From the sequence record QB031384.1: a stretch of DNA of 42,708 bases, one strand, 5' to 3'. This DNA is from a phage. The notes under the pieces were generated by a model. The model saw only the letters and a program-made list of their open reading frames with translations. It made no database searches and was not told the origin of the DNA. A program made the translations under genes and the position numbers. Below are positions 3,001 through 31,574 of the stretch, piece after piece (the first letter of the stretch is position 1; every line of letters starts with the position of its first letter).

Positions 3001-3251
3001 TTAATAAAGGCAGCGCCTTCTGAGAACATGATGTAAAGAAACTCTTTAGCAGTGCGACGTACAATCAGTACAGTGCTCTCTGCATCGAGAGGCTTGTCAA
3101 AGCGGATGCGCGTATCACTGTCCCAAGTAAAATCAAATACCTCTTCACGGTTCACGTACAAGTAAATGTAGGAACGGTCGAGATAGTTGATCTCTACTGG
3201 GACAGTCTGTGCACCAGCTGGTAGAATTTGTTCTTGCCAGCTATAGGCCAT
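3..3251 (-). CDS. Tail fiber / tailspike: N-terminal T7 gp17-like adaptor, central Asp-box (BNR) beta-propeller glycosidase-like region, C-terminal intramolecular chaperone (peptidase S74-like)
   Basis: 1082-aa ORF. N-terminal region carries the tail-fiber motif FRIINLAAGKDATDAVNKSQLD. Central region has Asp-box-like motifs SGDDGQTWTM and STNSGLTWEY. C-terminus has TSDGTLK ... HFGVIAQQVRDVL, typical of autocleaving chaperone domains. Last gene of the structural module. Confidence 0.8.
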   Translation of the reverse strand: MAYSWQEQILPAGAQTVPVEINYLDRSYIYLYVNREEVFDFTWDSDTRIRFDKPLDAESTVLIVRRTAKEFLYIMFSEGAAFIKENLDTQNTQFLHLAQELVEGRSIEGFFGTINMNGFRIINLAAGKDATDAVNKSQLDEVSTRVDNIEGAFNGVTSSYPMYFNTTEPTKEFRIALNFTKAAVYINGVCQTPGYSYTIRDNTVILADPVPAGTHVFMRLGEDVLEGGYATTESLAALSNALTRIDGPEVNPEYYRPHWRDSFDVRGWGVAGDAVTDDTAALQAMLAAAVHNQYIDGKGLTFKVTTLPDLSRFRNAAFKYERLAGQPLTYVSEGYFEAGLTKITDTPFYNAWTQDKSFVYDNVIYVPFMAGERHGVQNLHVAWVRSGDDGQTWTMPEWLTPIHPNYASGVNYHCMSMGVSNNRLYMLVETRNLSDARMVRAEMWSRPMPYARRPTGGISTVAGDNFATVVLPMHGLKVGDTINFSNSGVTGVSGNTVVRTVVDANTITVPLTNAAASTLTNAGVTWSFGTRFWDCQWEVTLLPGIAYSTNADLAVTETHSFTALEGNAVAVGYHNGDVSPRRLGILYFPDVYNNPGVFERRTVSQEYANDASEPCIRYYDGELYLTTRGTSATSAGSTLARSTNSGLTWEYLRFPNKVHNSNLPFAKVGDELYIFSSERAANEWEADTPDNRYNGNYARTFMCKVNVRNWPSSLDEVQWFNVTDQIYQGNIVNSSVGVGSVCVKDGWLYYLFGGEDFLSPWSIGGNSAKRWYVQDGHPTDLYSYRIKVGPQQHVSRDFKYGAAPNRTVPVSMGVDGLRHVSAPMVFDESVQVNSLRVTGTGHNGIPAVRSEVLLDGDYGQIYKSVPTDNPAQQRLILGGGSGNSAASGAIVQLYGSNHSTPNRAVLYATGGVYTQNNLLPYNDSSVALGGASNRWSTVYAATGTINTSDGTLKTAPEEVESALLDAWEDVHIISFKWLDSLATKGDAARTHFGVIAQQVRDVLVTNGLMEPEATSCKYGFLCYDEYPEMVEYDEEGNVSVVTPAGSRWGIRPDQMFFIEMLYQRRELARLKEQVKSLAHNKG

Positions 3252-3253
3252 GT

Positions 3254-6200
3254 TTAATCTCCAAAGTTATTAATGATTGCACGGGTAGGCATGAACTCCT
3301 GCAAGAGCGGGAGACTACGGGACACGTCTTTAAGGTCTGCTTCTCCTGCTGCTACCTTCTGAATCAGTCCTAAGATGTTCATAGCATATCCAGTAGCGGT
3401 CAGGCTATGACGTGGGGACTGGTCGCTGAAGATATCAGTCACAAAGCTGAAGCCGCCTAGTATACTCATAGCTTTAACAGCTTCTGCGATAATCTTACCT
3501 TCTGATTCCTGCTTACCGTCAGCAGCGAAACGAGCTTGAGTAATAAGGTACATCAAAGGGAACTGATACGCAGCGAGATGGGCTAAGCCAATCCAGCCGT
3601 TATCACGGTATTCACGACGTAGAATCTTGTTAGTACCTGCTACAGCAAAGCTACCGTAACCAACTACTACGCGACCTACTGGACTGAACTGTGCAAAGTG
3701 AGAAGTCTCACCTACACGAATCTGCTGGATAACATGGTCCATTAGACGAGTACCAATAATCTCTAGCTGAAACTGTAAGTCATCTGGCAGTAAAGCATCA
3801 ACATCAGGACTAGCAGCAGCTTGCATACGCTTAGCAAGTTCAGGGTCAAGACCCCAACGCTGTAAACGCTTAGTAGCTTCTGCATCTCCGTTCAGCATGA
3901 GCTTAAGCTCATCCATTACGATACCTGCGTTAACGTTAGTCTGAAGACGATGCACCAGACCCATACCGTTTACGTGACGTGCAGCCTGACCGATGTTCTG
4001 AGTGATGTTAAACCAGCGGGAACTACGGGTAAGGTCTAAGTTATCATCAGCGTAAGAGTTCAACCAACGGAACCGAAGTTCCTTCTGAATGCTACCACGC
4101 AGGATAGAATCAAGACGAGCGGATTGACTAGCGTCTTTAGCGACAGCTGTAGCTTCCTTCCACCACTTTTCTTTCTTCATGCTGCGGAGTACTCGGGTCA
4201 TCCCGAACTCTTTCATAGCAAGCGCAGTATCTGCCAGCTGATACAAACCGGAGTTCTTAAGTACGGTGGCGTTGGCAAGGTTACCAGCAGCGCGGAATAT
4301 CTCCGGAACTTCTGAACCCTGAACAGGTGCGCCTACCATGAAGTCGATAGTATCATCTACATGCTTCTGATAACGGTCTGGGTCGCGTACTGTAGACTTA
4401 GCTGTGTTAATCATACCTTCCAGTGCATTCAAGTCAGTTACACCCGCGTATGCAAATGCTACACGACCTGATACACGGTTAGTATAACCTTGCATCTGCT
4501 TAGCTACGTCAGTATCCAGAATATCCGCCATACGCATAGCCTGGCCATTAACTATATACTCCTTCTGCAAGTCAAAGCGGTTACGAGTACGCAGGTTCTT
4601 AACCCGAGAAGTCTGAGTCGCTTCGCGTGCTACGTTAGTAGTAAGGAAGTTACGAATCTGGTCGTCTGCTACGCCTGCTGCACGCATTGCATCAACGATA
4701 ACTTCGTTGCCTACACCGCCCAGAATACTACGCCATGCCGGACCAGTCTGCTTAGACTTACCATCATAGATGCTTTCGAACATCTCACGAGCTACGCGAC
4801 CAGCAACCTCAGTTGTCATATCTGGGTAGATATCACGCAGGGCTTGACGGAACAGGTCGCGGTAGTCAGAAGCCTGACGCGCGCCAGTGTTAATCTGCTG
4901 ACGAATAGCATCGTAACTGTACGAGCGTGGGAAGTAGTAAGGACTACGCTTAATCTGAGAATCCACCTCAACCAGTCCAGACTTCTGGAGATGGTCATAC
5001 CATTTAGTAGCCCACTCAGAGTCTACATACGCCTTAACTAACGGGGCAATATCCTGAGGAGGGGTAGGAATCTCACGACCTGCTGTCTCCGCTGAGTATG
5101 CTTGGTCAAGGTATTGTGCAAGTTTAGACTCACGCTCACGACGAGCAGCTTTGAACTTGTTACGTTGCAAGAACGCATCCAGTAAACCAATACCATCTGC
5201 ACGCAGGGAATCAATAATGGCCTTCTCAACTACAGAGGCTGCACCATCAAGCTCTAACTGTAGGTTACGCTTATAGTCAGCTACAGAAGGACGACGTGCA
5301 CCTACTGCTGCGCCGTCAGCTACTAGCAGGTCTGCTAGGTCTTTAGAGCCTTCAGCAATGTTATCGTACAGGCTGAAGCTGCGAGCGAACGCCTTCTTAA
5401 AGCTATCTAACTGCTTAACTGCACCGTTAGCCGTATCGGCGAACTCACCATACTCAGATAATGCCTGAGACTTATAACGGGTAACACCACGCTCTTTAGC
5501 AGCTACATCCAGAAGCGCATCATAGGAATCAAGCACAGAGTTCAAGGCATTACCTTCTACCTTAGCACCTAATGCTTTAAGGATAGTTTGAGCAATACGA
5601 CGAATAGCACTAGCACCTTCTACTTCAGTATTACGCAGTAGCTTAACCAGACCTTTATCATCTGCAAGACCTGCAAGTAACTCTTCGTTACTGCTCAGGC
5701 TGTAGCGCATACGCGCATCAAGATTAGGACTAGTAAGAAGCTGCTCACGAATACGAGTAAGGTTAGTGGTAGCTTCCAATGCTTCTGGAGTACCAGACTG
5801 AATAGCGCGTACAGTAGCAGCATGTATAAGCTCATGCACAGCAATTTTAGCAGTATTAGAATCCAGGCCATTGATAGCATCTCCGTAGGTCTTCCAAGTA
5901 CGTGGGCCTTTCTTAGAGGCACGCAGGGTGACCGCATTGTTAACTAGGTTATAACGGCTAGAGATGTTAGTGTCACCTACGAGGTGTACAGGCACATCAT
6001 CTATGATACCGTCCAGTGAACGCAGCAATGCCTTCTGACCCTCATCCAGTACATCGCGTGCTAACAGGTTCTTAGTAACGTCACTTGCGCGTACACTTAC
6101 ACGAGCCTGCTGACCTTTCAGGATACGAATAGGTTTCTTAAGCGGGGTAGATTCTAAGGAATCAATCTTAGTAGTAAAGGCATCCGAGTCTGGAGCTGTA

Positions 6201-14620: not shown

Positions 14621-14743
14621 GTTATGTATTTCCTATATATAGAGTGATTGAGAGTTTAAGTTTAGTTGCCGGAGGTGGGCAGGGAGTATTAAGCAGAAAG
14701 CCACACGGAGTGTACTGTGCTTCCACATCTCCAGCAGGTTTAA

Positions 14744-15568
14744 TTACAGCCCAGCACGCTTACCAGCAGCGCGACGGTCTAACAGGTCTTGGTAGCGACC
14801 AGCGAAAGCTTGAGACTGCAAGCTGCGGTTACCTACCTCTTTGCGAAGTTTAGAATATTCTTCGCTGAATGCCTTAGCACTAAGAGCACCAGCAGAGCCA
14901 GGTGCGCCTTGAAACTTAGGATTAATAGTCGCCATTACGCCGAGGCTTTGACAAGTCTCGATAACGAACTTAGCAGCCCCTGCGATATCGCCTGAATCGG
15001 CGAGTGCACGTGCAGCCTTACGGATGTGCTCGGGAGCCTTAGCATTAAATACCTGCGTCGCTGCATCCCATTGCTCTTTACCGCCAGCCATTTCATAAGC
15101 CGAATTAACTGCCTTCTGAACCCGACCTACTTGGTCTTCCAGATACGCCTTAGCTAGCATCTCTGCATATGCAGCATGTTCACCGAAACGTTCTTGGATG
15201 AATGCCTTATCAATTAAGTTAGCATCACCATACTCAATAGCCTTACCGATAGCACGGACCATGTCCGAGTCATTCAGTTTAGATACTTGTTTGAGCATAG
15301 CAATACCGGCATCAATTGCTGGATTACCTGTCTCTGCTAATTCAGTCTGAGCTGAAGCAGGAGTCGGAGCCTCTGATTTATTAAGTAGCTTAGACAGCGC
15401 TTCAATATCAAGCGTAGCAGGAGCAGGAGCTACTGCGACCTCAGGCACACCTTGCATGTTTGGTGCCTTAACGTTTGCGCCAGGGCCCGGAATCTTGGGG
15501 CCGTCGACATTCTCAACAACTATAGTTGCTGGAACTTCGCTTGGTACTGCTGAAATATCATCTGACAT
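14744..15568 (-). CDS. Scaffolding protein (T7 gp9-like)
   Basis: 274-aa Ala-rich, acidic, helical-looking ORF between portal and capsid genes. Confidence 0.65.
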   Translation of the reverse strand: MSDDISAVPSEVPATIVVENVDGPKIPGPGANVKAPNMQGVPEVAVAPAPATLDIEALSKLLNKSEAPTPASAQTELAETGNPAIDAGIAMLKQVSKLNDSDMVRAIGKAIEYGDANLIDKAFIQERFGEHAAYAEMLAKAYLEDQVGRVQKAVNSAYEMAGGKEQWDAATQVFNAKAPEHIRKAARALADSGDIAGAAKFVIETCQSLGVMATINPKFQGAPGSAGALSAKAFSEEYSKLRKEVGNRSLQSQAFAGRYQDLLDRRAAGKRAGL

Positions 15569-15577
15569 TTGTAACCC

Positions 15578-17134
15578 TTATTGAATTAAACCTAATTGTT
15601 GACCTGCTACAGTCGGGTCAGTAACTTGCAATAATGATTGCTGCTGCTGCTGGTCCTGCTGCTGCTGTGCTTGCTCTGCTTGCTGGCGTGCTTGCAATTC
15701 CTCTTCACTATAGAAGAAGGCACTGCTCTGAATGCCGAAGCTATCCATTACACTGTCAATCAAAGCATCAACGTTAGTACGTACAGTTGCCTGTTGCAGT
15801 ACCGGTACAATTAATTGAAGACTCTGTACTGCTTCAAGTAGTCTATCAGCCTGGGCTGACTTGTACAAGCTAGCGGTCCCTACCGTTACATCCAGCCCCA
15901 ATGCACCGAGCTCGAACATAGGTCGAATCTCAGGATACTTATTAAGAACGTACAGGTACGCGAGTTTACGAAGCCAATTATCTGCAAGTGTAGAGTAAGC
16001 GTCACCTAAGGCTGATTGTGCTTCTTGAGCATTCTGACGAATCTCATAAGCAGTTACACGCTCACCTTGACGAGTGTTACCGCCGTACATGAATGCACGG
16101 GATAGCTTCTGCTCGATAGTGCTAATCTCAGCTTGTAGCGCGGCAATCTTCTGAGCGTTCCCACCTTCATGGGACCATACTCCAGAACTGGTACCTGCGG
16201 GCTGGTTAGTCTGTACGAACTCACCTGTCTCTGCATCTTGCAATGCATCAATATCTACACCAGAAGCTGAGCTAACCATGTTAACTACTCTCGCTGCTTC
16301 CACCTCATACAAGGTTAAGCTACGGGAAAGCACAGATAAACGGGCGAAGTCACCAGCGTAATCCTCAACGAGGCTACGACCGTAGTGCTCACCATTAACA
16401 AGGTTCCATGCCAGTACTACGTACGGACATTGGTCCTCAGGATAATAGCTAGGCTCACCTACAGGGTAGGTTTCGACTTCCTGATATACTTTATATACAT
16501 AACCAAGCTCACGACGCTCACGCATAATTCCAGTAAATAAGCGCACATCATCGTACATCTCCTTATTGGAGAAGTGAGCTCGTCGGATATCATCTGGGAT
16601 ATCCGCAACGCTGATACGTTCACGTAGGATTGTAGTCAGTACGTTACCGGCTCCATCACGCTTAGTAGCATAATCGCGCACGCTGTATACGTAAGAACGT
16701 TCAGTTTCGGAGTCGAAGTATTCCAGAGCATTGCCAGTTACGAGTAATAGTTTAATAGCGCGTAGCTTTGCAGCATACCCGCCTTTAGTGAATACGATAC
16801 TAGATGCTACAGCTTCCATTTCAGCCTGAGCTGAGAAGACCGAACCTTGCAGACCTAATTGGTCAACAATCCCTGTAAGGTCAGCGGATGCCGCGAATCT
16901 AAAGAATGGACTGCCTTGTGGAAACAATGCATCTACAATCTTAGTAGCTGCTGAGTTGACAAGCAGCGCACCAGTACTCTGATAGTCATGCACCAGAGAA
17001 GTACGCTTACCGTCACTCGCTGTAATATCCTTAGTGAATACGTTAGGAAGTGTCCAGCGAGCGTATTGCTCAGCAGCGTCTAGTGTAGATGCATCCTTCA
17101 ATCGAACGAATAAATCTGCTAAACGCTTTTGCAT
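15578..17134 (-). CDS. Head-tail connector (portal) protein (T7 gp8-like)
   Basis: 518-aa ORF, first large gene of the structural module, with an acidic/Gln-rich C-terminus. Call is by synteny. Confidence 0.75.
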   Translation of the reverse strand: MQKRLADLFVRLKDASTLDAAEQYARWTLPNVFTKDITASDGKRTSLVHDYQSTGALLVNSAATKIVDALFPQGSPFFRFAASADLTGIVDQLGLQGSVFSAQAEMEAVASSIVFTKGGYAAKLRAIKLLLVTGNALEYFDSETERSYVYSVRDYATKRDGAGNVLTTILRERISVADIPDDIRRAHFSNKEMYDDVRLFTGIMRERRELGYVYKVYQEVETYPVGEPSYYPEDQCPYVVLAWNLVNGEHYGRSLVEDYAGDFARLSVLSRSLTLYEVEAARVVNMVSSASGVDIDALQDAETGEFVQTNQPAGTSSGVWSHEGGNAQKIAALQAEISTIEQKLSRAFMYGGNTRQGERVTAYEIRQNAQEAQSALGDAYSTLADNWLRKLAYLYVLNKYPEIRPMFELGALGLDVTVGTASLYKSAQADRLLEAVQSLQLIVPVLQQATVRTNVDALIDSVMDSFGIQSSAFFYSEEELQARQQAEQAQQQQDQQQQQSLLQVTDPTVAGQQLGLIQ

Positions 17135-17137
17135 AGT

Positions 17138-17368
17138 TTAAATCCCAAGTGCAGACGATGCTGCGCCTTGACGACGTCGCTTCTGGTCTGAGGTAATTGC
17201 AGTTGCAGATGCAGAGGCTGCGCCGCCTGAATCTACCTGAGTCAGGTTCTCACCAGAAGCATCGTTATCTAATGCAGCCTGTGCCGCGATGGCTTGCCGC
17301 TGTTGTTCAGCTGCTTTCTGCTGCGCTTCCAGTGCCGCAGTGTCAGTCAGTCCAACAAGGTCAGTCAC
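17138..17368 (-). CDS. Hypothetical protein (76 aa, GTG start)
   Basis: ORF-track ORF beginning with GTG (plus CAC at 17366-17368) and ending 3 nt before the portal ATG. Ala/Gln-rich, weak SD. Confidence 0.35.
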   Translation of the reverse strand: MTDLVGLTDTAALEAQQKAAEQQRQAIAAQAALDNDASGENLTQVDSGGAASASATAITSDQKRRRQGAASSALGI

Positions 17369-17427
17369 AGATGATAATGCTTTCTTAATCCCGCCGATGA
17401 TGCTACCCTCCGCCCGAAGGCTATATG

Positions 17428-17856
17428 TTAGTTGAGTTTGATTCCGCGCTGAAGATAGTCCTTATCCGACACCGCACGGGTGAGTATTAACCAGTCTGCA
17501 CCGTTCTCTCGAACAATACGTTTTAAATTCCTGTAGAGTGTAGCAACTGCCTGGGGATGATAAGGCTCAACTACCAAGAAGCCCGTAACCATACTCTTCC
17601 CAGGGTAATGTGAATTCTCTAGTAATTCAGGCAGGATACTTACCCCACCTACCAACTCATCTCCACTGAACACAGCTAAGACACTGTGCCCTTGTATCTC
17701 CTGGACAACCTTCTGGAAGTGCTCTTCCTCGTCCATACCTAGCTTAATGCCAATGCCCCAGATATGAAGCTGTTTTACAATCTTGATTATGTAATCACTG
17801 GAAGTATTCCAATTGTATAATCTAGTGTTGTAGAGAGTGTTGTTTTGTTTGCTCAT
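17428..17856 (-). CDS. Hypothetical protein (142 aa)
   Basis: ORF between the HNH gene and the portal region. A weak resemblance to an acetyltransferase-type fold (GFLVVEPYH...) is unverified. Confidence 0.5.
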   Translation of the reverse strand: MSKQNNTLYNTRLYNWNTSSDYIIKIVKQLHIWGIGIKLGMDEEEHFQKVVQEIQGHSVLAVFSGDELVGGVSILPELLENSHYPGKSMVTGFLVVEPYHPQAVATLYRNLKRIVRENGADWLILTRAVSDKDYLQRGIKLN

Positions 17857-17924
17857 GTTGGTTGCTACCCCTTACTATTACCTGTGGTTCCTCCATCCCA
17901 GAAATCGAACTACTGGGAGGAGAT

Positions 17925-18572
17925 TTAAGCTTCAGGTAAGTGATTGTATTTACCTAAGTAATGCCGTATATACTCGGCCCTTGCAGATAACATATCATCC
18001 GCTTGACCTAGATGTACTCCCGCTACTCGCACATAGAACTTACCTGCCGCGCTATTCCAAAAGAAACCTTTAGTTTGACCAGACTTACGATTCTGTGCAT
18101 TCTTAACTTGAGTAGATGCACGTAGGTTGGTTGGATTATTGTTTAGTGGGTTGTTATCTATGTGGTCGACTACCTCGGGCCAACTGCTATATGTCAGAAA
18201 GTACACCGCCCTACTAGCTGATAAAGTCTTGTTGAAAGCCCTGCCAGAATATGCTGTTCTCTGGCTACTCTGATACTTATGAGCACTAGTAACCTTACCT
18301 GACAGGGCAGGACTGCCTGCCTTAATCTTACTGGCAGGCCCGGTAGTCCCCACTAAAGGCCGTCTCCAGCTAACCCAGCTCTCAGAGGAAGCATCTACTT
18401 GAAGGTACACTGCAATAAGCTCTTCCGTAGATAGCCTGTTAAGCATTTCCTTATACTTAGGCATAGGTGGTCCCCAGTTATCTGGATTATCTAGGTACTC
18501 TTTTGTAGCATACTTCTGAACAGGAGGGTGCACGCACGCCATCCATATTTCCCAATCGGTCATCTTAGTCAT
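17925..18572 (-). CDS. HNH homing endonuclease with AP2-like DNA-binding domain
   Basis: 215-aa ORF. HNH-type motif VDHIDNNPLNNNPTNLR and AP2-like GFFWNSAAGKFYVRV...RAEYI. Free-standing between the RNAP gene and the structural module. Confidence 0.7.
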   Translation of the reverse strand: MTKMTDWEIWMACVHPPVQKYATKEYLDNPDNWGPPMPKYKEMLNRLSTEELIAVYLQVDASSESWVSWRRPLVGTTGPASKIKAGSPALSGKVTSAHKYQSSQRTAYSGRAFNKTLSASRAVYFLTYSSWPEVVDHIDNNPLNNNPTNLRASTQVKNAQNRKSGQTKGFFWNSAAGKFYVRVAGVHLGQADDMLSARAEYIRHYLGKYNHLPEA

Positions 18573-18581
18573 ATAACACCT

Positions 18582-21032
18582 CTAACAGAAAAAGAATCTG
18601 CTACCCAGTACCTGCTTAAGGTCCAAAGAACCTTTAGCTGGTAACTCCAGCCCTTCTAAGTCTGCCCCACAAGCTACTGCCGCATCAGTAATCTCCTGAA
18701 GTACGTCATGCTCTGTGTACAGACGTAGGAACTGTTCGCGGATAGCAGAATGCATTTCATCTACATCGCAAGCGTGAGTAGCTACCGAGTCGTGGATAGG
18801 CATAATGTCTCCTGAGAATGCAGAGATAGTCATACCTAAGTGAGTAGCGTCTAAGCTGTGCACCCAATTAGGGGAGATGCCTGACTTAGCCTTACGCTTG
18901 TTGTTTACATTGTAGTTACGGTTGTACACCAGCAGGTGTGTCAGGTTCATGCTCTTAACAGAAACCTTAGTCTCTTCTGATTCAGTGTATCGGTTGATAA
19001 CCAGCCCGCCTAACGGAGTCTTCCATTGAAGGTGGTTGGCTGCTGGTACACGATAGCACAGTGACTGTACATATTTCATCGCCTCAGTAGCTGCTGGGTT
19101 AGCGTCCTCTACTGCTGCCTTCATGCGAGTACTCAGATATCCTGCCAGCTTGAACAGGCTGTACTCTTCCGTTCCTTCGTAACCTTCTTCCTGTGCAGAC
19201 TGAAGGATGTACTCGGAGCAAGAGCGCACAGTAGCCGAGTATACGTGTGTCATGCATGGACGTTTAGCCATGCTGCGGGTAATCTCGTTCCCACGCCAGT
19301 AGTTAGCCTGCACTACGAAGTCAGGATTGTCCAGGTCCATGATGACCTTAGCATCAGTACGGCGCTTAACGTCCATGTACATATCTGCTTTCTCTTCGTT
19401 ACCCTCCCAGAACAGGTTAACTAAACGACCACCTACTGAGTCACGCAGTAACGCGGCGAAGTGCTGCTGCCCCGAGTTGGTTGCATCCATAGCCACCGGA
19501 ATGCGTGATTCGTATGTTTCCGGGCTGCCAGAGTCAATAGCAGCAACGAGGTCGATGCAGGCTGCCAGAAAACACCACGGGCTGTCTGCACTCCTGAAAG
19601 CTTCTGCATTAAACGGATTTGATGCGACAAGTCGAATCTGCTCGATATTAGCATCAGTCCAAGCTGCACGCTTTTCGAATAAGGCTTTATCATAACCATA
19701 GCAGGTAGCGACGTGTACCTTGAGCCAAAACAAACCCCGCTCTCCCAGAGGCTTTGCCCGACTGAAGGAGAGCAAAGCTTTCTGCATGTCAGGACCCTGA
19801 GGGTGCAGGCTTGATTTGAAGTACAGGCGGTAGCGCCAGTCAACGCAGGTTGGGAAGTACAGTTCTTTCTCATCCTTAAACTCCTCGCAGAGTTGAACCA
19901 GTGTCACCATGGAACGCAACTTACTTACGCGAGTACGCTCTTGGATGTACCAGTTACGCATATTCATCTTCCAAGTCTGGAAGTCATCCATCTGGCGCTC
20001 GGTGTAATCCTCTTTAGGTACACCGTCCAGATACCACTCAGGTCTAGGGGCTGGGTAGGAACTAGGCATACCTGTCGTTACACCTTCACGACGTGCTTGG
20101 TTAAGCAGATTAAGTACTTCCTTGTTGATAACGTAAGGCACTTCCTGCGCCTTGTTCAGCATATCCTTCAGTCCCTCTGCCTGCTTGAATGCCTCTGCTA
20201 CTTCACGTTTCATTGCACGAGTAATCTGGTGATTATGGTAAGTACCGCGCTTGCAAGTGCTGCTTAGAAGGTATCCACCTGAGAACATGTCTACATGCTT
20301 CTGCGGAGGTACAATCATTGGGGGTTTAATCTCTACGGTATCTGCGTCCAGTACTAAATCGCCTAGTACCTCAGCTAATACTTCAGACGGTGCCAAGTAT
20401 TGTAGCTGGGTTGCGTCAGTGCTCTTATCCCACGTGAACAGGCCTGTTTCCCACACAGGTTGTAGGATTAATTTACCTACTGCTACACACTGAGAAGCGG
20501 ACCAAGGTTCATGCCCGTAGTGCACGTTCTCTGCTGAAGCACGTAAGGTCTTCATAATATGCGACTGACTTGTAGTGTTACGTTCTTTCAAGTACTCAAA
20601 TACACGATTCATATATGCGGGTGCAACTACTTCTAGCTGTATGCTAAGGACCTCGGCTTGAACCTGGCGCCCTAGGTTAGCCAGCAAAGCTTGTGCAGAT
20701 GTACGGCTTCCACCAGACTCTTTAAGGAAGAGGGAGTCAATGCATTTAGTGAGTGCCATTACAGCGAGAACGTCAGTAGGGACCAGACGGATAATGCTGC
20801 GGTACTTACCGCCGACGCCTGCGGTCTTCTGTACCTTCATCTCGTCAATGCCTTGAGCAACAGTATCATAGGCTGCTGCAATCATGCGACTTACCTTAGG
20901 CAGGCTGCTTAAGTTACCTGCTGCCAGTGCCTTCTGCACCAGCTCACGCGACTTGTTCAAGCTGCGCGTACGGTAATCTTTCTCTAACTGTAACTGGCGT
21001 TCTACTTTCTGTTCTAATGTTTCGTGTTGCAT
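18582..21032 (-). CDS. DNA-directed RNA polymerase, single-subunit (T7-like)
   Basis: 816-aa ORF. Motif A DATNSGQQHFAALLRD, motif B RSMAKRPCMTHVYSAT, motif C IHDS. GAGGG SD 4 nt upstream. Sits directly before the structural genes. Confidence 0.9.
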   Translation of the reverse strand: MQHETLEQKVERQLQLEKDYRTRSLNKSRELVQKALAAGNLSSLPKVSRMIAAAYDTVAQGIDEMKVQKTAGVGGKYRSIIRLVPTDVLAVMALTKCIDSLFLKESGGSRTSAQALLANLGRQVQAEVLSIQLEVVAPAYMNRVFEYLKERNTTSQSHIMKTLRASAENVHYGHEPWSASQCVAVGKLILQPVWETGLFTWDKSTDATQLQYLAPSEVLAEVLGDLVLDADTVEIKPPMIVPPQKHVDMFSGGYLLSSTCKRGTYHNHQITRAMKREVAEAFKQAEGLKDMLNKAQEVPYVINKEVLNLLNQARREGVTTGMPSSYPAPRPEWYLDGVPKEDYTERQMDDFQTWKMNMRNWYIQERTRVSKLRSMVTLVQLCEEFKDEKELYFPTCVDWRYRLYFKSSLHPQGPDMQKALLSFSRAKPLGERGLFWLKVHVATCYGYDKALFEKRAAWTDANIEQIRLVASNPFNAEAFRSADSPWCFLAACIDLVAAIDSGSPETYESRIPVAMDATNSGQQHFAALLRDSVGGRLVNLFWEGNEEKADMYMDVKRRTDAKVIMDLDNPDFVVQANYWRGNEITRSMAKRPCMTHVYSATVRSCSEYILQSAQEEGYEGTEEYSLFKLAGYLSTRMKAAVEDANPAATEAMKYVQSLCYRVPAANHLQWKTPLGGLVINRYTESEETKVSVKSMNLTHLLVYNRNYNVNNKRKAKSGISPNWVHSLDATHLGMTISAFSGDIMPIHDSVATHACDVDEMHSAIREQFLRLYTEHDVLQEITDAAVACGADLEGLELPAKGSLDLKQVLGSRFFFC

Positions 21033-21499: not shown

Positions 21500-21956
21500 A
21501 GCATTTATCCTTATGTTGTTCGAACAGCTCTTTGTAGAAATCGGCCTTCTTAAGGTCCTTCTCCATCGTAGCGAGCTCTGCTTTCTTACCAGCACGCAAG
21601 CGATATTTGAGCACGTTCCCCATGCAGAAGCCCTTGAACTCTGCATGTGTCATGCTGCGTGCAATAATCTCAATGCTCTCTACGTCAGGGAATACTTGGT
21701 AATGCGACGGCTTACGTACATCATCCGTAGAGCCCTTACTGCGTGCTTCCTCGTGAACCTCTTCTAATAGTTGCGCCTTCTCATCCAAATAACGGAAACC
21801 ACTATAAGTAGTAGCTTCCTTAATATGTGCTGCTGCCCTGTGCGGCGATAACCTAGTACTATTAGTGAGGCAATAAATTCCATCTTTATCGTAGATGTAC
21901 TCAAATACCCCACGTCCCCAAGTGTATTCACGATACATTTCTAAAGGATTACTCAT
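21492..21956 (-). CDS. Hypothetical protein, DUF3310-like
   Basis: 154-aa ORF with SHYQ ... GNVLKYRLRAGKK, recalled as characteristic of the phage DUF3310 family. Confidence 0.5.
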   Translation of the reverse strand: MSNPLEMYREYTWGRGVFEYIYDKDGIYCLTNSTRLSPHRAAAHIKEATTYSGFRYLDEKAQLLEEVHEEARSKGSTDDVRKPSHYQVFPDVESIEIIARSMTHAEFKGFCMGNVLKYRLRAGKKAELATMEKDLKKADFYKELFEQHKDKCYA

Positions 21957-22378
21957 TTCTTAATCTCCTTTGCTGCACGTTTAACTGCACGCTGCTTACG
22001 TGCCTTAGCGTTAGCTACTAGGCGCTTCTCTTCTTCGGTCTTATGCGTAGGGTAAATATACTCAGTGGGTTCACGGTCTAAGTAATCTGCCATATTGCGT
22101 AGAGCATTGGCGATAGCAGCACTACTACCCATGCTACCAACAATCCACCTACCACAAGCGGACGCCACTTTCCCCTCACCCCCATTGCATGACCTATGCA
22201 ATGCACCACGTATACGCCCATTATTATGGTCATGGTCACATACAACACTGTCACCTTTAGCCCCCTTAATTGAGAAATCTAGCGGCTTACCGCAGAGTAG
22301 GCAATTGCCACCCTGCTCCTTAGCAAGTTTCATTGTAATAGTTCTGAGCTGCGCTCTAGTAACCTTACGCATTACCAT
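21953..22378 (-). CDS. Recombination endonuclease VII (junction-resolving enzyme)
   Basis: 141-aa ORF with CLLCGKPL ... CDHDHNNGRIRGALHRSCNGGEG, matching the Cys/His-rich zinc-binding core of T4 endonuclease VII. Confidence 0.75.
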   Translation of the reverse strand: MVMRKVTRAQLRTITMKLAKEQGGNCLLCGKPLDFSIKGAKGDSVVCDHDHNNGRIRGALHRSCNGGEGKVASACGRWIVGSMGSSAAIANALRNMADYLDREPTEYIYPTHKTEEEKRLVANAKARKQRAVKRAAKEIKK

Positions 22379-22608
22379 AGGTCGAGTTCCTCGCCTTCAT
22401 CTAAATAGTGCTGCTCTGCAATCAAGTCCTCAAGCTGTACCTGCGCCTGCTTATACAATGCAGGGTCTTGCTTGTACAGCTCAGCCAGCTTGTCTTCCAT
22501 CTCTGCGAAGTTCTCTTGGAAGTACAGTTCAATTACTGCTTCTACTGCTGCGTTGAAAGTCGCCATGCCTTGTATTCCTCGTTGTATTGATGCAAGGCTT
22601 CCGCCCAT
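22372..22608 (-). CDS. Hypothetical protein (78 aa, acidic)
   Basis: ORF-track ORF overlapping the exonuclease 3' end. The true start may be the internal Met near 22566. Confidence 0.4.
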   Translation of the reverse strand: MGGSLASIQRGIQGMATFNAAVEAVIELYFQENFAEMEDKLAELYKQDPALYKQAQVQLEDLIAEQHYLDEGEELDLW

Positions 22609-23462
22609 TTCTGGAGGTCGCCCTCCAGTAGGGGGTGTATATAACTGAATGCCGAGTCATCTGGACTGCGACGAAGGAACAAGCATTCCATCTCAGCTAG
22701 GAAGTTCTGGTTAATCTCTGCGTAGGCCGCGACTACTTTGTTAGCCGCTCCCTTCTCCGTACTGCAATCCTTTAGGAACTCATACGCACCAGCTGGGCCT
22801 ATGTTCTTTCCCTTGTACTTAGTAAGTCCAGCAACGTGGTCAGCAGCGTCACCCATTAGCATCTGGGCGAACATGAAAGCTAAACCATGACCGACTACCT
22901 TACCTCTGGATTTATCGTACTCAATCCAGCCGTAAGCATCATCAATCGCATCTACAGTACCTAGCTCAGGGTTCCACTTAGGACCTCGGCAGAGGTTCAT
23001 ATCCTTATCGAAGCTACTTACTAGGCCTCGGTCACCGAAGGCCAAGCTGTCTGCAATAATGCAGTCGTCGGCTTCAGCTTGATAGTCGAAGATAATTTCA
23101 ATTCCTTGCACAGCATACTCGTGAGCATGCGCGATGAGATGAGCCTTAAGGGGTGCTTTGAGCGGTATCTCTTCTCGAGCTGCACGTTGGCCTTGGTACG
23201 GCTTAACGGTAGGCAGAAGGAACCTGCCGCATTTAAAGTTATCAGAAGGAGTAATGTATGCACGTACTTCCTTAGCGTTGCAGTAGAATTTCTCTTCGAG
23301 AACTAATTGATAGAAGCGCCGGACAGCTGTGTCCAAGCGCTTCACTGTACTCGCTGCCTTGTAGACTGCTTGGTCTGCGTCAAGCAGCAGCACAGTATCT
23401 GAAGGAGCAGGTGGCGCTAACTGAGCGCCAAGCTCATCTAAGTTAATGCCACCAATCTTCAT
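22542..23462 (-). CDS. 5'-3' exonuclease (T7 gp6-like, FEN/PIN-type)
   Basis: 306-aa ORF with an Asp-rich N-terminal active-site pattern (LLLDADQAVYKA, EADD). Position downstream of the DNA polymerase matches T7-group synteny. Confidence 0.65.
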   Translation of the reverse strand: MKIGGINLDELGAQLAPPAPSDTVLLLDADQAVYKAASTVKRLDTAVRRFYQLVLEEKFYCNAKEVRAYITPSDNFKCGRFLLPTVKPYQGQRAAREEIPLKAPLKAHLIAHAHEYAVQGIEIIFDYQAEADDCIIADSLAFGDRGLVSSFDKDMNLCRGPKWNPELGTVDAIDDAYGWIEYDKSRGKVVGHGLAFMFAQMLMGDAADHVAGLTKYKGKNIGPAGAYEFLKDCSTEKGAANKVVAAYAEINQNFLAEMECLFLRRSPDDSAFSYIHPLLEGDLQKWAEALHQYNEEYKAWRLSTQQ

Positions 23463-23834
23463 CTAGTAACCTGCTTCCTCAAGGATAAGGATTGTACCAA
23501 TCATCTCATTGATAACACCTACTGCGTGCAGGCCCTGCTCGATATCATAGATGATTGAAGCGATGTTGCTTACGTGAGCGAACAGACTACCAGTGATGCG
23601 AACATACACTAGCTCATCACCAGTCAGCTTACCAGCCTGGGCTGTAATGTCGTTGTTATCCTTCAGGACCTGTACGACCTCATCAGCCGTGATGCCAAAG
23701 TCTTCAGCGACTGCCCAGAGAGCAGCCTTAATATCACCTACGCCCAGACTTTCATCTGAGGTGTACAGGCTAACTACAAAGTCAGACACAGAGTTGCAGA
23801 GTTCAGTGTAATGGTTAAGTACTTTATCAGTCAT
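23463..23834 (-). CDS. Hypothetical protein (123 aa)
   Basis: ORF tightly packed between the 263-aa ORF and the exonuclease. No motif recognised. Confidence 0.5.
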   Translation of the reverse strand: MTDKVLNHYTELCNSVSDFVVSLYTSDESLGVGDIKAALWAVAEDFGITADEVVQVLKDNNDITAQAGKLTGDELVYVRITGSLFAHVSNIASIIYDIEQGLHAVGVINEMIGTILILEEAGY

Positions 23835-23848
23835 AGCCTAATCCTTAA

Positions 23849-24640
23849 TTAAAGTGCAGGAGGAACAACAGCGAATGTAGGTGCGGCTGGAGCTACTGGG
23901 GCTACTGGAGCAGTTGGGGCAGCAGGTGCAGCAGGTGCAGATACTGAGGCAGGTGCAGCCATAGCCGCCATGTCAGGAACATCGCCCATTAGCATCTGCT
24001 GAAGAGCCGAGCCTTCGAAGTTAACTGCGCTCAGAATGTCTTCCTGAATGAAGTTGTTCTTCTCAATATGCAGAGAACCCCAAGTTTCTTTAGTCGGGTT
24101 ATCAAACAGGAACAGACGAAGACCTGATTCGTCCAATGCTGGCAGCTCTACCGGAGCGCCAGTCTGCGGGTCAAACTTAGGTAGAGTACGCAGACTCAGG
24201 AAGTCGATGGTGTTAGAAGTCTTACCAGCCTTACTGGTGTACTGCTCAACCTCAAACATGAACGCTTGGCCTAGACGTTGTGCCATGTGCTTCAGCGTGC
24301 CGTCATAGTTCATCTTGTCGAAGACTTGTTTAAACTTAGCTTTCTCGAAGCTGCTAATGGCCATTGGGAACGGATTAATACGCTTGATAGAACCATCAGG
24401 GGTGTAAACGATGAAGCCTAAGCGCACGTTCATTACTGCTGGCTTGCCAGTCGGCTTACCCATGTGCATAGGAATCTTTTTACCTAACTCGATGTACTCC
24501 ATGAAGCGGCCGAAGTAGGTACCTTTTGGCAGCAGTACATCGGCGAAGTTACCGCCTGACTGCGTTACTGATTGGTCGATACCTTGCTCAGCTACAGTTG
24601 CGTTAACGAGGGAAGACAGTGCGCTCAGATTGATGGTCAT
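23849..24640 (-). CDS. Hypothetical protein (263 aa) with Ala/Pro-rich low-complexity C-terminal tail
   Basis: ORF in the replication module. The last ~45 residues are low-complexity (APASVSAPAAPAAPTAPVAPVAPAAP...). Confidence 0.55.
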   Translation of the reverse strand: MTINLSALSSLVNATVAEQGIDQSVTQSGGNFADVLLPKGTYFGRFMEYIELGKKIPMHMGKPTGKPAVMNVRLGFIVYTPDGSIKRINPFPMAISSFEKAKFKQVFDKMNYDGTLKHMAQRLGQAFMFEVEQYTSKAGKTSNTIDFLSLRTLPKFDPQTGAPVELPALDESGLRLFLFDNPTKETWGSLHIEKNNFIQEDILSAVNFEGSALQQMLMGDVPDMAAMAAPASVSAPAAPAAPTAPVAPVAPAAPTFAVVPPAL

Positions 24641-24667
24641 ATTTGAATCCTTATATAAGTTTAAGAG

Positions 24668-24832
24668 TTACTTAGAGATTAATGTATTAGCAATACCATA
24701 GAACGTGGCAAGCAATGCAATCAGTGCCATCCCTACTACAGCGACTTTACCATAGAGTTGTATAAGGCCTAGTATACTAAATCCTACCGAACTTAGTGCG
24801 GCTGTTAGGCCCACTACCTTTAGAGTGCGCAT
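24668..24832 (-). CDS. Small hydrophobic protein (54 aa), not in ORF track
   Basis: ATG at 24832-24830 with AAGGT upstream; translation MRTLKVVGLTAALSSVGFSILGLIQLYGKVAVVGMALIALLATFYGIANTLISK, consistent with 1-2 transmembrane helices. Lies in a 300-bp gap. Confidence 0.35.
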   Translation of the reverse strand: MRTLKVVGLTAALSSVGFSILGLIQLYGKVAVVGMALIALLATFYGIANTLISK

Positions 24833-26678: not shown

Positions 26679-27182
26679 CTACTTCTCCACAACTTCATAC
26701 TCTCCATGATTAGGATGGAATCCATGTAACCGCTCGACAGCCTTTCTTGCTTTAACAGCAAGGGTAATATCTGTAAACAAGCCCAAGTGCATATAAATGC
26801 CATCTACCTTTATACGCGCACGCCACTTACCAGCATTCTTATCCCAGCCTACGCCGCATATGCCGCTGGTGTTGCTCGAGTGTAGCCTCATATTGCGGCT
26901 GTTAGTGCTTTGATTTACTAACCTTAGATTAATTAACCTATTATCATCTTTAATATGGTTAATATGGTCTATTTGCAAACCTGCCGGAATAGGTCCATTT
27001 ACCATCTCATAAATTATGCGATGTAATTTGTAAGTCTTACCCCTTACCATGACCTGCATGTAACCACGCTTGTTTAAGCAACCAGCTACCTCTCCTACCT
27101 TTGAAGCACTTCTAGGTAACCTAATCTTCCAAATCAAAGCCCCTGTATCTGGGCAGTAGTTGAATATACTATTCCAATCCAT
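26679..27182 (-). CDS. HNH homing endonuclease with AP2-like DNA-binding domain
   Basis: 167-aa ORF with HNH motif LQIDHINHIKDDNRLINLRLVNQSTNSRN and AP2-like GVGWDKNAGKWRARIKVDGIYMHLGLF. Second such gene in the genome. Confidence 0.7.
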   Translation of the reverse strand: MDWNSIFNYCPDTGALIWKIRLPRSASKVGEVAGCLNKRGYMQVMVRGKTYKLHRIIYEMVNGPIPAGLQIDHINHIKDDNRLINLRLVNQSTNSRNMRLHSSNTSGICGVGWDKNAGKWRARIKVDGIYMHLGLFTDITLAVKARKAVERLHGFHPNHGEYEVVEK

Positions 27183-27378
27183 AGTATTCCCCTTCTTCTA
27201 CTACAAGATATTCACAAGGTGCAAAAGTAAACTCCTCATCTTCATCTCCTAAATCAACCTCTCCTGTGTCAGGGAAGAACTCATATACTTCGTGAACACT
27301 GCCTACCGGGAATCTATCCATGTACTCGAACATCTCGCCTACACCATATGCACTGTAGTTAAGAATGCGAACTTTCAT
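27169..27378 (-). CDS. Hypothetical acidic protein (69 aa)
   Basis: First ORF downstream of the promoter-leader cassette at 27490-27638. Strongly acidic (DLGDEDEEF, VVEEGEYYGLE). Confidence 0.45.
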   Translation of the reverse strand: MKVRILNYSAYGVGEMFEYMDRFPVGSVHEVYEFFPDTGEVDLGDEDEEFTFAPCEYLVVEEGEYYGLE

Positions 27379-30287: not shown

Positions 30288-31574
30288 CTACGCTAAGCCT
30301 TCTGAGAACCGACACGTACCTCCGTTAAACTCTACCTGAAATTGAACATACGCTGGACTGCCTGACAGTCCTAGCTTATTTTTTGGTGTCGAGATTCCAC
30401 GTACCGTAGCCATATCCGGCCTATCGTTAACATTCATGCGACCCATCATAATACACAAATCTAAAGCCCCTTGAATTCCTATCTTAGAACCTTTCAGCGC
30501 TGTCAGCGGGGGGTACATACAGTCATACCCTTCGACTGACAGCTGCACAGTTCCTAAGATTATACAGTCGTGTTCGCATCCTAAGATTCGTAACTGCTGC
30601 CACTTCTGCTCTAATGCCTGGTATTCAGATTCAGCGTTCCCGCCTTTGATGTTACTTACCATGTCCACCACCAGCACAGCCGGACGCATCTCTTCCAGAA
30701 GGGTAGAGATTTGCCCCAAGCTCATACTGTGGGCATCCTTAACGCGAATCTTATCCCACGTCCCGACCTTCTTCAGATACTTGTCCGCGAACTTACCTTC
30801 CTTATGCTGCTCAACAATCTGCTGCAACGTAAGCCCAGTAGCTGCTTGATAGATACGCGGAACAGTACGCTTAGCTAGTGATTCGTTCACTAACCAGAGT
30901 ATCGGTCTGTCAGAGTAGATGTCAGGGCTTTGATGCATCTGCTCTGCAAGCGAGACAACGGTAGCAGCAAGCAGACTCGTCTTTCCCGCGTCCACTGGCG
31001 CAGCAATAGCGACGCAATCACCACCACGCAGGCCGCGAATGTTCCGAGATAACTCAGAGAATACAGTAAGCTGTAACCCGCCGCTTTCATCAGTAGCTGC
31101 AAGGATATCATCTACACCTCCGTCTTCCCATTTCAATAATGAATCATTAGCAGCTGCTACGCCTGAGTACTTACGCTCAAGCGCTTTAGCTTCTTGTACG
31201 AAATCTATTTCCCCTCCTGCCTGATACTTACTTACAAGCGCAGCCATCTCACCTGAGTAAGCCAGCTCGTTCAGAGTCTTAACTGTACCAGCTACAAGCT
31301 CGTTAGGTACGTTCTGGATAGTCTTAAGCATATGCTTCAGGATATCCATCTGCTCTTTCTGAAGATGCGTACCGCGCATATCCAAGAGCGTATTCATCAT
31401 CTCAAAGTTAACTTCGTTAGAGTCAGGGTAAGTTGCAAAGTACAGTTGCAGCCAACCAATCATCGCTACTGTATCAGGTGCTAACAGAGACTTAGGTGTC
31501 TGCTCATACAACCTGTCCATTATCTTACGTTCACAGAAAGCGCGTAGTAAATTAAAGTCCATCAAGTGCTCCAA
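30288..31574 (-). CDS. Replicative DNA helicase (DnaB/T7 gp4 helicase-domain-like)
   Basis: 428-aa ORF with Walker A AAPVDAGKTS and Walker B-like VLVVDMV. Lies between primase and DNA polymerase. Confidence 0.8.
   Translation of the reverse strand: MEHLMDFNLLRAFCERKIMDRLYEQTPKSLLAPDTVAMIGWLQLYFATYPDSNEVNFEMMNTLLDMRGTHLQKEQMDILKHMLKTIQNVPNELVAGTVKTLNELAYSGEMAALVSKYQAGGEIDFVQEAKALERKYSGVAAANDSLLKWEDGGVDDILAATDESGGLQLTVFSELSRNIRGLRGGDCVAIAAPVDAGKTSLLAATVVSLAEQMHQSPDIYSDRPILWLVNESLAKRTVPRIYQAATGLTLQQIVEQHKEGKFADKYLKKVGTWDKIRVKDAHSMSLGQISTLLEEMRPAVLVVDMVSNIKGGNAESEYQALEQKWQQLRILGCEHDCIILGTVQLSVEGYDCMYPPLTALKGSKIGIQGALDLCIMMGRMNVNDRPDMATVRGISTPKNKLGLSGSPAYVQFQVEFNGGTCRFSEGLA

Follow-up and report, generated by a model that had tools for sequence, protein, structure and literature searches.

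The stretch analysed here is a phage sequence of 42,708 nucleotides (record QB031384.1), which we call the window and in whose numbering all coordinates are given unless another source is named. It belongs to a Slopekvirinae (KP34/phiKMV-like) podophage of E. coli and carries, on its minus strand, a gene for an HNH endonuclease with an AP2-like C-terminal domain. The gene lies directly behind that of the phage RNA polymerase (RNAP) and ahead of a gene of 142 amino acids, referred to as gx. How did an endonuclease gene come to occupy this junction, and does it home to it or merely reside there? We consider it probable that the open reading frame (ORF) encodes an I-HmuI-like HNH endonuclease joined to an AP2-type domain and a subfamily-specific extension, and that this free-standing gene is a site-specific homing endonuclease gene (HEG) at home between RNAP stop codon and gx leader in podophages of the Slopekvirinae type.

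An empty site in a near-identical phage

The closest GenBank relative of the window is Escherichia phage vB_EcoP_P64441 (P64441), which is 97–99% identical across most of its genome and has no HNH gene at this position. An earlier note on this DNA had proposed a comparison with a relative lacking the insertion. Set against P64441 (blastn of 17300–19000 against L001), the locus has clean boundaries: where the window has a cassette of 692 bp, P64441 has 29 unrelated bp. The ORF described in that note is genuine in its coordinates, strand, start codon and length.

17890–18581, minus strand: 692-bp HEG cassette (ribosome-binding site, HNH-AP2 ORF, 3' hairpin)
17925–18572, minus strand: HNH-AP2 endonuclease ORF, ATG start, 215 amino acids, intact in the ORF list
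17857–17889, minus strand: conserved gx leader AACCACAGGTAATAGTAAGGGGTAGCAACCAAC, the right-hand cassette border according to junction alignments, present also in the HEG-less P64441

The cassette starts at the first base behind the RNAP stop codon, where it adjoins the conserved RNAP 3' end TTCTTTTTCTGTTAG, and reaches to the end of the hairpin, just short of the leader AACCACAGGTAATAGTAAGGGG common to both phages. Its flanks, 17300–17889 (590 bp) and 18582–19000 (at least 419 bp), are 100% identical to P64441, whose own intergenic region at this junction is 62 bp long.

Empty junctions of 59–63 bp were found in six relatives. By eye, the 29 bp of P64441 share CATTAA and CTCAGA with two empty junctions of 59 bp, those of PAS7 and of the IMG/VR contig L027. 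Because of these shared short motifs the P64441 allele is most likely a genuine empty site and not a deletion scar. A third type of empty junction, 63 bp long, occurs in ECO104, L028 and L029.

The empty junction of P64441 (L001 4391–4419) itself contains a motif with ACAGGTA twice in tandem, as GTACTACAGGTAT and AACCACAGGTAAT, and the window cassette takes the place of the first. The motif resembles the gx leader of other lineages (ACGTATAG...AGGGG) and is not repeated elsewhere in the window.

Distribution and site fidelity

No sequence identical to the window HNH protein was present in the protein database. Its subfamily comprises 12 cluster representatives with 43–91% amino acid identity. 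We inspected 13 loci: Enterobacter phage Entb_48, Cronobacter phage Peggy, the IMG/VR locus L008 (on the same contig as L031) and ten Logan/ENA loci (L020–L026, L034–L036). The HNH gene directly follows the RNAP stop codon and precedes a gene of 135–146 amino acids in all 13, although their RNAPs are only 65–96% identical to that of the window. At 11 of these loci the gap between RNAP stop and HNH start measures 8–10 nt and includes a Shine-Dalgarno sequence. It is longer as called in Peggy and L025, about 53–58 nt, where an in-frame upstream GTG start is possible. Across phages of Escherichia, Enterobacter and Cronobacter, the subfamily keeps to a single intergenic site. A distant short relative, P0014 (33% identity), is located in the replication module instead.

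Carriers are rare. Among 267 GenBank phage records with a gx homologue, only Entb_48 and Peggy have a member of this HNH subfamily. Seven IMG/VR loci were fetched by way of gx: five have no HNH relative at all, L031 has a subfamily member, and the only HNH protein of L033 is 39% identical and encoded at a different position. A search for junction alleles with an exact 24-mer of the RNAP 3' end returned no contig from IMG/VR or the JGI metagenomes.

Other sequences are found at the same RNAP/gx junction. In phiKDA1 (L006 3628–4013), L030 and L032 it is filled by 386 bp of non-coding sequence, which folds better than shuffled sequences (z −3.2; 1 of 100 shuffles as good) and has no Rfam match. 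We rejected this filler as a decayed HNH gene, since its tblastn and blastn similarity is limited to the shared gx leader. In L033 the junction holds an ORF of the NinX family (3091–3459; PF10765, E 7e-14), and a different, HNH-AP2-like gene of 150 amino acids lies between the small virion protein and the portal (4196–4648).

Evolution of the HNH gene

In neighbour-joining trees (200 bootstraps) the RNAPs form two groups, (window, L020, L024) and (L021, L022, L023), each with 100% bootstrap support. The HNH proteins pair differently, as (window, L020), (L021, L024) and (L022, L023), also with 100% support each, and the pair of L021 with L024 contradicts both RNAP clades. Between the window and L024 the synonymous divergence (dS) is 2.2 for the HNH gene and 0.72 for RNAP; between L022 and L023 the values are 2.6 and 0.83. 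In a sliding-window comparison the drop in identity falls within the HNH segment, which is bounded by RNAP stop and gx leader. The conflict between the trees, the saturated dS of the HNH gene and the confinement of the identity drop to its segment together indicate that HNH alleles have been exchanged horizontally between RNAP lineages. The gx of L024 is nearer to that of L021 (91.0%) than to that of the window (88.7%), which would fit co-conversion, though weakly.

The ratio of nonsynonymous to synonymous divergence (dN/dS) of the HNH gene is 0.144 for window–L020, 0.045 for L022–L023 and 0.11–0.13 for window–L022 and window–L024. Judging from the sequences, the gene is intact, functional and under purifying selection. 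Between the window and L020, dS amounts to 0.357 for HNH, 0.379 for RNAP and 0.509 for gx. Since the HNH value equals that of the flanks, the gene appears to have travelled with them in the window's clade since at least the split from L020. By contrast, the presence/absence polymorphism between the window and P64441 is, on these comparisons, very recent, whether by gain or by loss, and probably arose in a population that has both alleles in circulation; the gene itself seems no newcomer from a foreign source. The window may have gained the cassette from a sibling, or P64441 may have regained the empty allele, and either event needs a partner with identical flanks. A foreign origin as judged by composition was rejected, because GC content, GC content at third codon positions (GC3) and codon usage are all ordinary.

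These data bear on the view of the earlier note that the gene is mobile and marks a recent insertion. Mobility is borne out by the gene's absence from P64441, by the same site in 13 of 13 loci and by a phylogeny in conflict with that of RNAP. Recency holds for the polymorphism but not for the gene, which is old in its clade and of ordinary composition. The note had added that an identical position in all related phages together with normal codon usage would speak for a long-resident gene. Position and codon usage are indeed as such a gene would have them, but the gene is missing from the nearest and from most other relatives.

Structure of the HNH protein

The protein is made up of three parts.

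18393–18572, minus strand: helical N-terminal extension, residues 1–60, from the alignment of the subfamily
18090–18182, minus strand: HNH (His-Me finger) catalytic core, residues 131–161, WPEVVDHIDNNPLNNNPTNLRASTQVKNAQN
17946–18068, minus strand: AP2-like DNA-binding domain, residues 169–209, from the AlphaFold2 model

Residues 131–159 match Pfam HNH_3 (PF13392) with 32.5 bits against a cut-off of 24.8 (E 6.4e-8). The match spans profile positions 15–45 of 46, the second half of the model. The protein also matches PHROG_99, 'HNH endonuclease' (E 2.7e-25). In an alignment of 45 homologues Asp136, His137, Asn145, Asn149 and Asn158 are invariant, and the conserved HNH residues line up with the DH...N...N of I-HmuI (1U3E), the sole PDB match by sequence. 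An AlphaFold2 model calculated from these homologues has a mean predicted local distance difference test score (pLDDT) of 87 and a predicted template modelling score (pTM) of 0.71. It matches I-HmuI best, followed by plant AP2/ERF domains (residues ~169–209), and has the beta-beta-alpha(-metal) core that defines the fold at residues 134–161. The translation contains one cysteine and no zinc-binding CxxC pair. An HNH catalytic domain, as read earlier from the bare sequence, is thereby confirmed by the Pfam match above cut-off, the PHROG match and the invariant catalytic residues.

The C-terminal domain comprises the strands 170–173, 178–183 and 186–191 and a helix of residues 194–209. In the model this tail folds into a sheet of three antiparallel strands that packs against a single helix, and it can be superposed on solved AP2 domains. 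Pfam AP2 (PF00847; gathering score 33.3 bits) did not match the protein even at E ≤ 1, and related short HNH proteins score 24–31 bits against this family, likewise under the cut-off. Homology was traced through P0015, the HNH protein of Pectobacterium phage CB5: in BLASTP, window residues 169–202 align to P0015 residues 95–134, within its AP2 match (96–140). An hhalign comparison of the subfamily profile with an HNH_3+AP2 profile gave 99.8% probability, contiguous over residues 106–212. By modelled fold and transitive homology the domain is of AP2 type, yet it fails Pfam's own test. The AP2-type domain named in the earlier note is accordingly recovered by superposition and profile homology, with Pfam AP2 itself unmatched.

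The extension is confined to the subfamily found at the RNAP 3' end; short HNH-AP2 relatives such as P0015 and P0014 are without it. Its motif Y26-x2-N29-P30-x-N32-W33-G34-P35-P36-x-P38 is invariant. The helices fall within residues 6–56, and pLDDT is lower, 61–79, over residues 1–40. The first ~100 nt of the ORF are better conserved between allele classes than the remainder (76–82% against 48–84% DNA identity).

Neighbouring genes and expression signals

Both genes that flank the cassette are intact.

18582–21032, minus strand: upstream neighbour, single-subunit phage RNA polymerase, 816 amino acids (Pfam RNA_pol, E 3.4e-92; PHROG_414)
17428–17856, minus strand: downstream neighbour gx, 142 amino acids, phrog_5167, 100% identical to its P64441 counterpart
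18573–18584, minus strand: RNAP stop TAG (18582–18584) and 9-nt spacer AGGTGTTAT, followed by the ATG of the HNH ORF
17890–17923, minus strand: interrupted hairpin at the 3' end of the cassette, in minimum-free-energy and centroid folds

The window RNAP has 99.6% amino acid identity to that of P64441. NCBIfam has no name for the HNH protein or its neighbour; a gx homologue in phage Peggy carries the annotation 'acetyltransferase'. Beyond gx follow, by PHROG matches, a virion protein of 76 amino acids and then the portal. The locus had been described as the boundary between RNAP and structural genes. The RNAP side of this description holds, but the gene immediately downstream is gx, and structural genes begin only after it. 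That the endonuclease gene is free-standing, as also stated, agrees with two intact flanking ORFs and with no Rfam family, group I introns included, in the region. Rfam gave no match in the window at gathering scores and none at E ≤ 1 across 17300–18800, and a tRNA search of the window found none. With these searches empty, an intron or structured RNA around the HNH gene was rejected.

The Shine-Dalgarno sequence of the HNH ORF, GAGGTG, overlaps the RNAP stop codon. A sigma-70 promoter scan of the RNAP/HNH junction called none, so the HNH gene is presumably co-transcribed with RNAP. The gx leader CCACAGGTAATAGTAAGG is single-copy in the window at ≤3 mismatches. We considered a phage promoter at the cassette border and claim none, because the leader is unrepeated and the cores ACGTATAG and GTAWTAG... 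do not recur in intergenic regions.

In the hairpin a 1-nt bulge separates 6 bp from 4 bp, or from 5 bp if a closing U-G pair is counted, and the loop measures 11 nt. The structure reported in the earlier note is thus present at the 3' end of the cassette, but its stability is no better than chance: the 79-nt hairpin region gave z −0.2, with 78 of 200 shuffles at least as stable. No T-run follows 3' of the hairpin and the terminator scan makes no call. An intrinsic terminator was rejected on the negative scan and the energy at the level of shuffles. L020 retains the hairpin with one substitution; the other allele classes have different, weak or no stems. The hairpin may serve as an RNA 3' end or a processing site, or may have no role.

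Further HNH genes and module boundaries

The window and P64441, whose genomes are 98–99% identical, differ in the presence or absence of four HNH genes. A second free-standing HNH_3 gene (26679–27182, minus strand, 167 amino acids; HNH_3 E 6e-18, weak AP2 match at E 0.024) is a 505-bp insertion (26703–27207) relative to P64441. Conversely, P64441 (L004) has at 17609–18130, 24257–24682 and 14740–15420 two HNH genes and a DNA methyltransferase gene that are missing from the window; the matching window positions are about 23451–23474, 30302–30310 and 21077. The methyltransferase gene lies just upstream of RNAP.

In L021, a Logan contig (ERR1950675) from a related phage, the RNAP gene is split into parts of 523 and 266 amino acids (2114–3190). 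A group I intron at 2114–2369 (Rfam RF00028, 55.7 bits against a gathering score of 50, E 3.8e-13) is followed by an ORF of 225 amino acids with weak HNH (PF01844, 20.3 bits) and HTH_28 matches. This contig also has the HNH gene at the RNAP 3' end.

The window portal (15578–17134) has 59% amino acid identity to that of L020 (5885–7459), with RNAP at 96% and gx at 94%. This places a module recombination boundary between gx and portal, and L020 has another HNH gene (5138–5590) exactly there.

Comparison with known systems

I-HmuI-type enzymes are nickases (PMC3428280). The genes of I-HmuI, I-HmuII, I-BasI and I-PfoP3I lie within group I introns that interrupt DNA polymerase genes, whereas the window gene is free-standing behind RNAP. 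Members of the I-HmuI group end in a helix-turn-helix domain; the window protein has an AP2-like domain in its place and the additional N-terminal extension. Nicking by the window protein would follow by analogy with these enzymes.

In its setting the gene resembles MobE of phage T4 and the free-standing Seg/Mob HEGs, which are likewise intergenic, promoterless, dependent on upstream transcription, placed beside a conserved essential gene and sporadic among close relatives (PMC2790892). These genes spread by break-induced gene conversion in mixed infections, a process called 'intronless homing'; MobE, a promoterless free-standing HNH HEG, nicks a conserved neighbouring gene in phages that have no mobE, and repair then copies it into them (PMC2790892). 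MobE has a C-terminal domain of zinc-finger type and a target inside nrdB, and polymorphisms protect its own genome. Unlike the case of MobE, the flanks of the window gene are identical in HEG-carrying and HEG-less genomes. Protection, if any, would have to come from the displaced intergenic bases.

HEGs that combine HNH with AP2 have a recognised architecture, and boundaries of exchange between phages are known to be marked by nuclease genes (PMC10448857). Homing endonucleases of the HNH-AP2 type in phages and cyanobacteria (Magnani et al. 2004, as cited in PMC10448857) and the 'IPA-HNH' HEGs of ICP1 share with the window protein the layout of an N-terminal HNH and a C-terminal AP2-type domain. 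They too are free-standing, near essential genes and at boundaries of genetic exchange (PMC10448857). Compared with them, the window protein has an AP2 domain beneath detection by Pfam PF00847, is ~60 residues longer at the N-terminus, where it carries NWGPP, and belongs to a subfamily at a single site. Two members of this subfamily are known from annotation only: GAKPeggy_340 of Cronobacter phage Peggy ('HNH homing endonuclease', 49% amino acid identity) and ACLQWB_000021 of Enterobacter phage Entb_48 ('hypothetical protein', 62–68%). Both lie, as in the window, between RNAP and a gene of 137–141 amino acids; the host genera differ and the RNAPs are 66–71% identical to that of the window.

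Proposed mechanism

Based on the anatomy of the locus and on these systems we propose the following course of homing, all steps of which we infer beyond that anatomy. The promoterless HNH gene would be transcribed by read-through from RNAP and translated from its own Shine-Dalgarno sequence. In a mixed infection the enzyme would recognise the HEG-less junction of a related phage. The putative site is probably the conserved RNAP 3' end together with the adjacent intergenic bases displaced by the cassette; these bases are included because the coding flanks are identical in genomes with and without the HEG. At this junction the enzyme would nick or cut. Zinc-less HNH_3 enzymes of this kind are usually nickases. 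In the last step the recombination machinery of the phage would repair the break from the HEG-carrying genome and thereby copy the cassette in. Among the genes of the window is one for an endonuclease VII (21953–22378), and the window ORF 22542–23462 is the counterpart of a P64441 gene annotated 'exonuclease'.

A further step from this mechanism, which we regard as doubtful, has at least three deeply diverged classes of HNH allele replacing one another at the RNAP 3' site. The endonucleases would compete by cutting sites occupied by a rival, and the extension would be a new element, for DNA recognition or for interaction with RNAP, by which the family is tethered to the junction. The allele classes are ~62–67% identical in amino acids and saturated at synonymous sites, with flanks that are 88–96% identical. 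Competition of this kind is known for I-HmuI and I-HmuII, between SPO1 and SP82.

Alternative explanations

Several observations weigh against homing as the explanation of this locus. No co-conversion tract is visible around the cassette in the comparison of the window with P64441, because the nearest single-nucleotide polymorphisms (SNPs), at 17136 and 19173, are 753 bp and 591 bp away. With flanks that are identical, this pair demonstrates neither the direction of gain or loss nor homing. The SNP-free zone of 1.3 kb is, by our own estimate, somewhat longer than the local SNP density (~0.4%) predicts and is silent on which allele is derived. The RNAP 3' end is the same in genomes with and without the HEG, so that self-immunity is assumed from the displaced 29 bp alone. 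The empty junctions, moreover, differ among lineages, and a single conserved target 3' of the stop codon is not evident. The composition of the gene is inconspicuous: its GC content of 45.5% compares with 48.4 ± 4.3 for the other ORFs and is within the range of the genome, the z-scores of GC and GC3 are about −0.7, and its codon-usage fit, third lowest of 33 ORFs, is inside the range. Its synonymous divergence from L020, at about the level of the flanks, could also describe a long-resident accessory gene that is often lost.

This last description can be extended to a domesticated accessory nuclease, lost in many lineages, that does not home but is of benefit to the phage and, for example, nicks or degrades host or competitor DNA, or regulates late genes through its AP2 domain. 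The identical position in every carrier, the normal composition, the flank-level divergence from L020, the strong purifying selection and the conserved N-terminal motif specific to the subfamily would all suit such a gene, and Barth et al. point out that sequence alone does not rule out domestication (PMC10448857). We nevertheless think it unlikely. The conflict between HNH and RNAP trees at 100% bootstrap and the saturated dS require replacement of alleles, beyond loss; the near-identical sibling P64441 has an empty junction of the old type with no deletion scar; very few of the phages with the neighbouring genes carry it; and two near-identical genomes differ by four HNH presences or absences. 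Nor does decay explain the locus well. If the gene were an inactive HEG remnant, kept because its deletion is neutral, an HNH_3 match covering only the second half of the Pfam model and an AP2 domain too diverged for Pfam would be expected features. A full-length ORF with no frameshift, catalytic residues invariant in 45 sequences, a dN/dS of 0.05–0.14 and a confident model (pLDDT 87) make this hardly credible.

The HNH gene could also be passive cargo of ordinary mosaic recombination at a module boundary between the early/middle and the late region, a 'plasticity site'. Unrelated inserts do occur at the same junction elsewhere, namely the 386-bp filler of phiKDA1, L030 and L032 and the NinX-family ORF of L033, and a module boundary is nearby, since the window and L020 portals are 59% and the RNAPs 96% identical. 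The cassette borders, however, are precise and the same in all lineages (RNAP stop codon and gx leader), one nuclease subfamily is the cargo in 13 of 13 cases, and nuclease genes are themselves thought to cause exchange boundaries (PMC10448857). We judge this explanation very unlikely, and prefer that of a site-specific HEG.

Significance

The locus leaves the current understanding of homing endonucleases unchanged, and the Peggy homologue had already been annotated 'HNH homing endonuclease'. On sequence grounds the HNH gene of the window belongs to a known kind of HEG, and arguably to a new site-specific subfamily within it. The window and P64441 provide a natural pair with and without the HEG, whose identical flanks narrow the putative homing site to ~30 bp at the RNAP stop codon. 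The locus also illustrates how fast HNH genes turn over between near-identical genomes. For the genomics of phage therapy, such genes would be read as selfish passengers and not as factors of host range or virulence.

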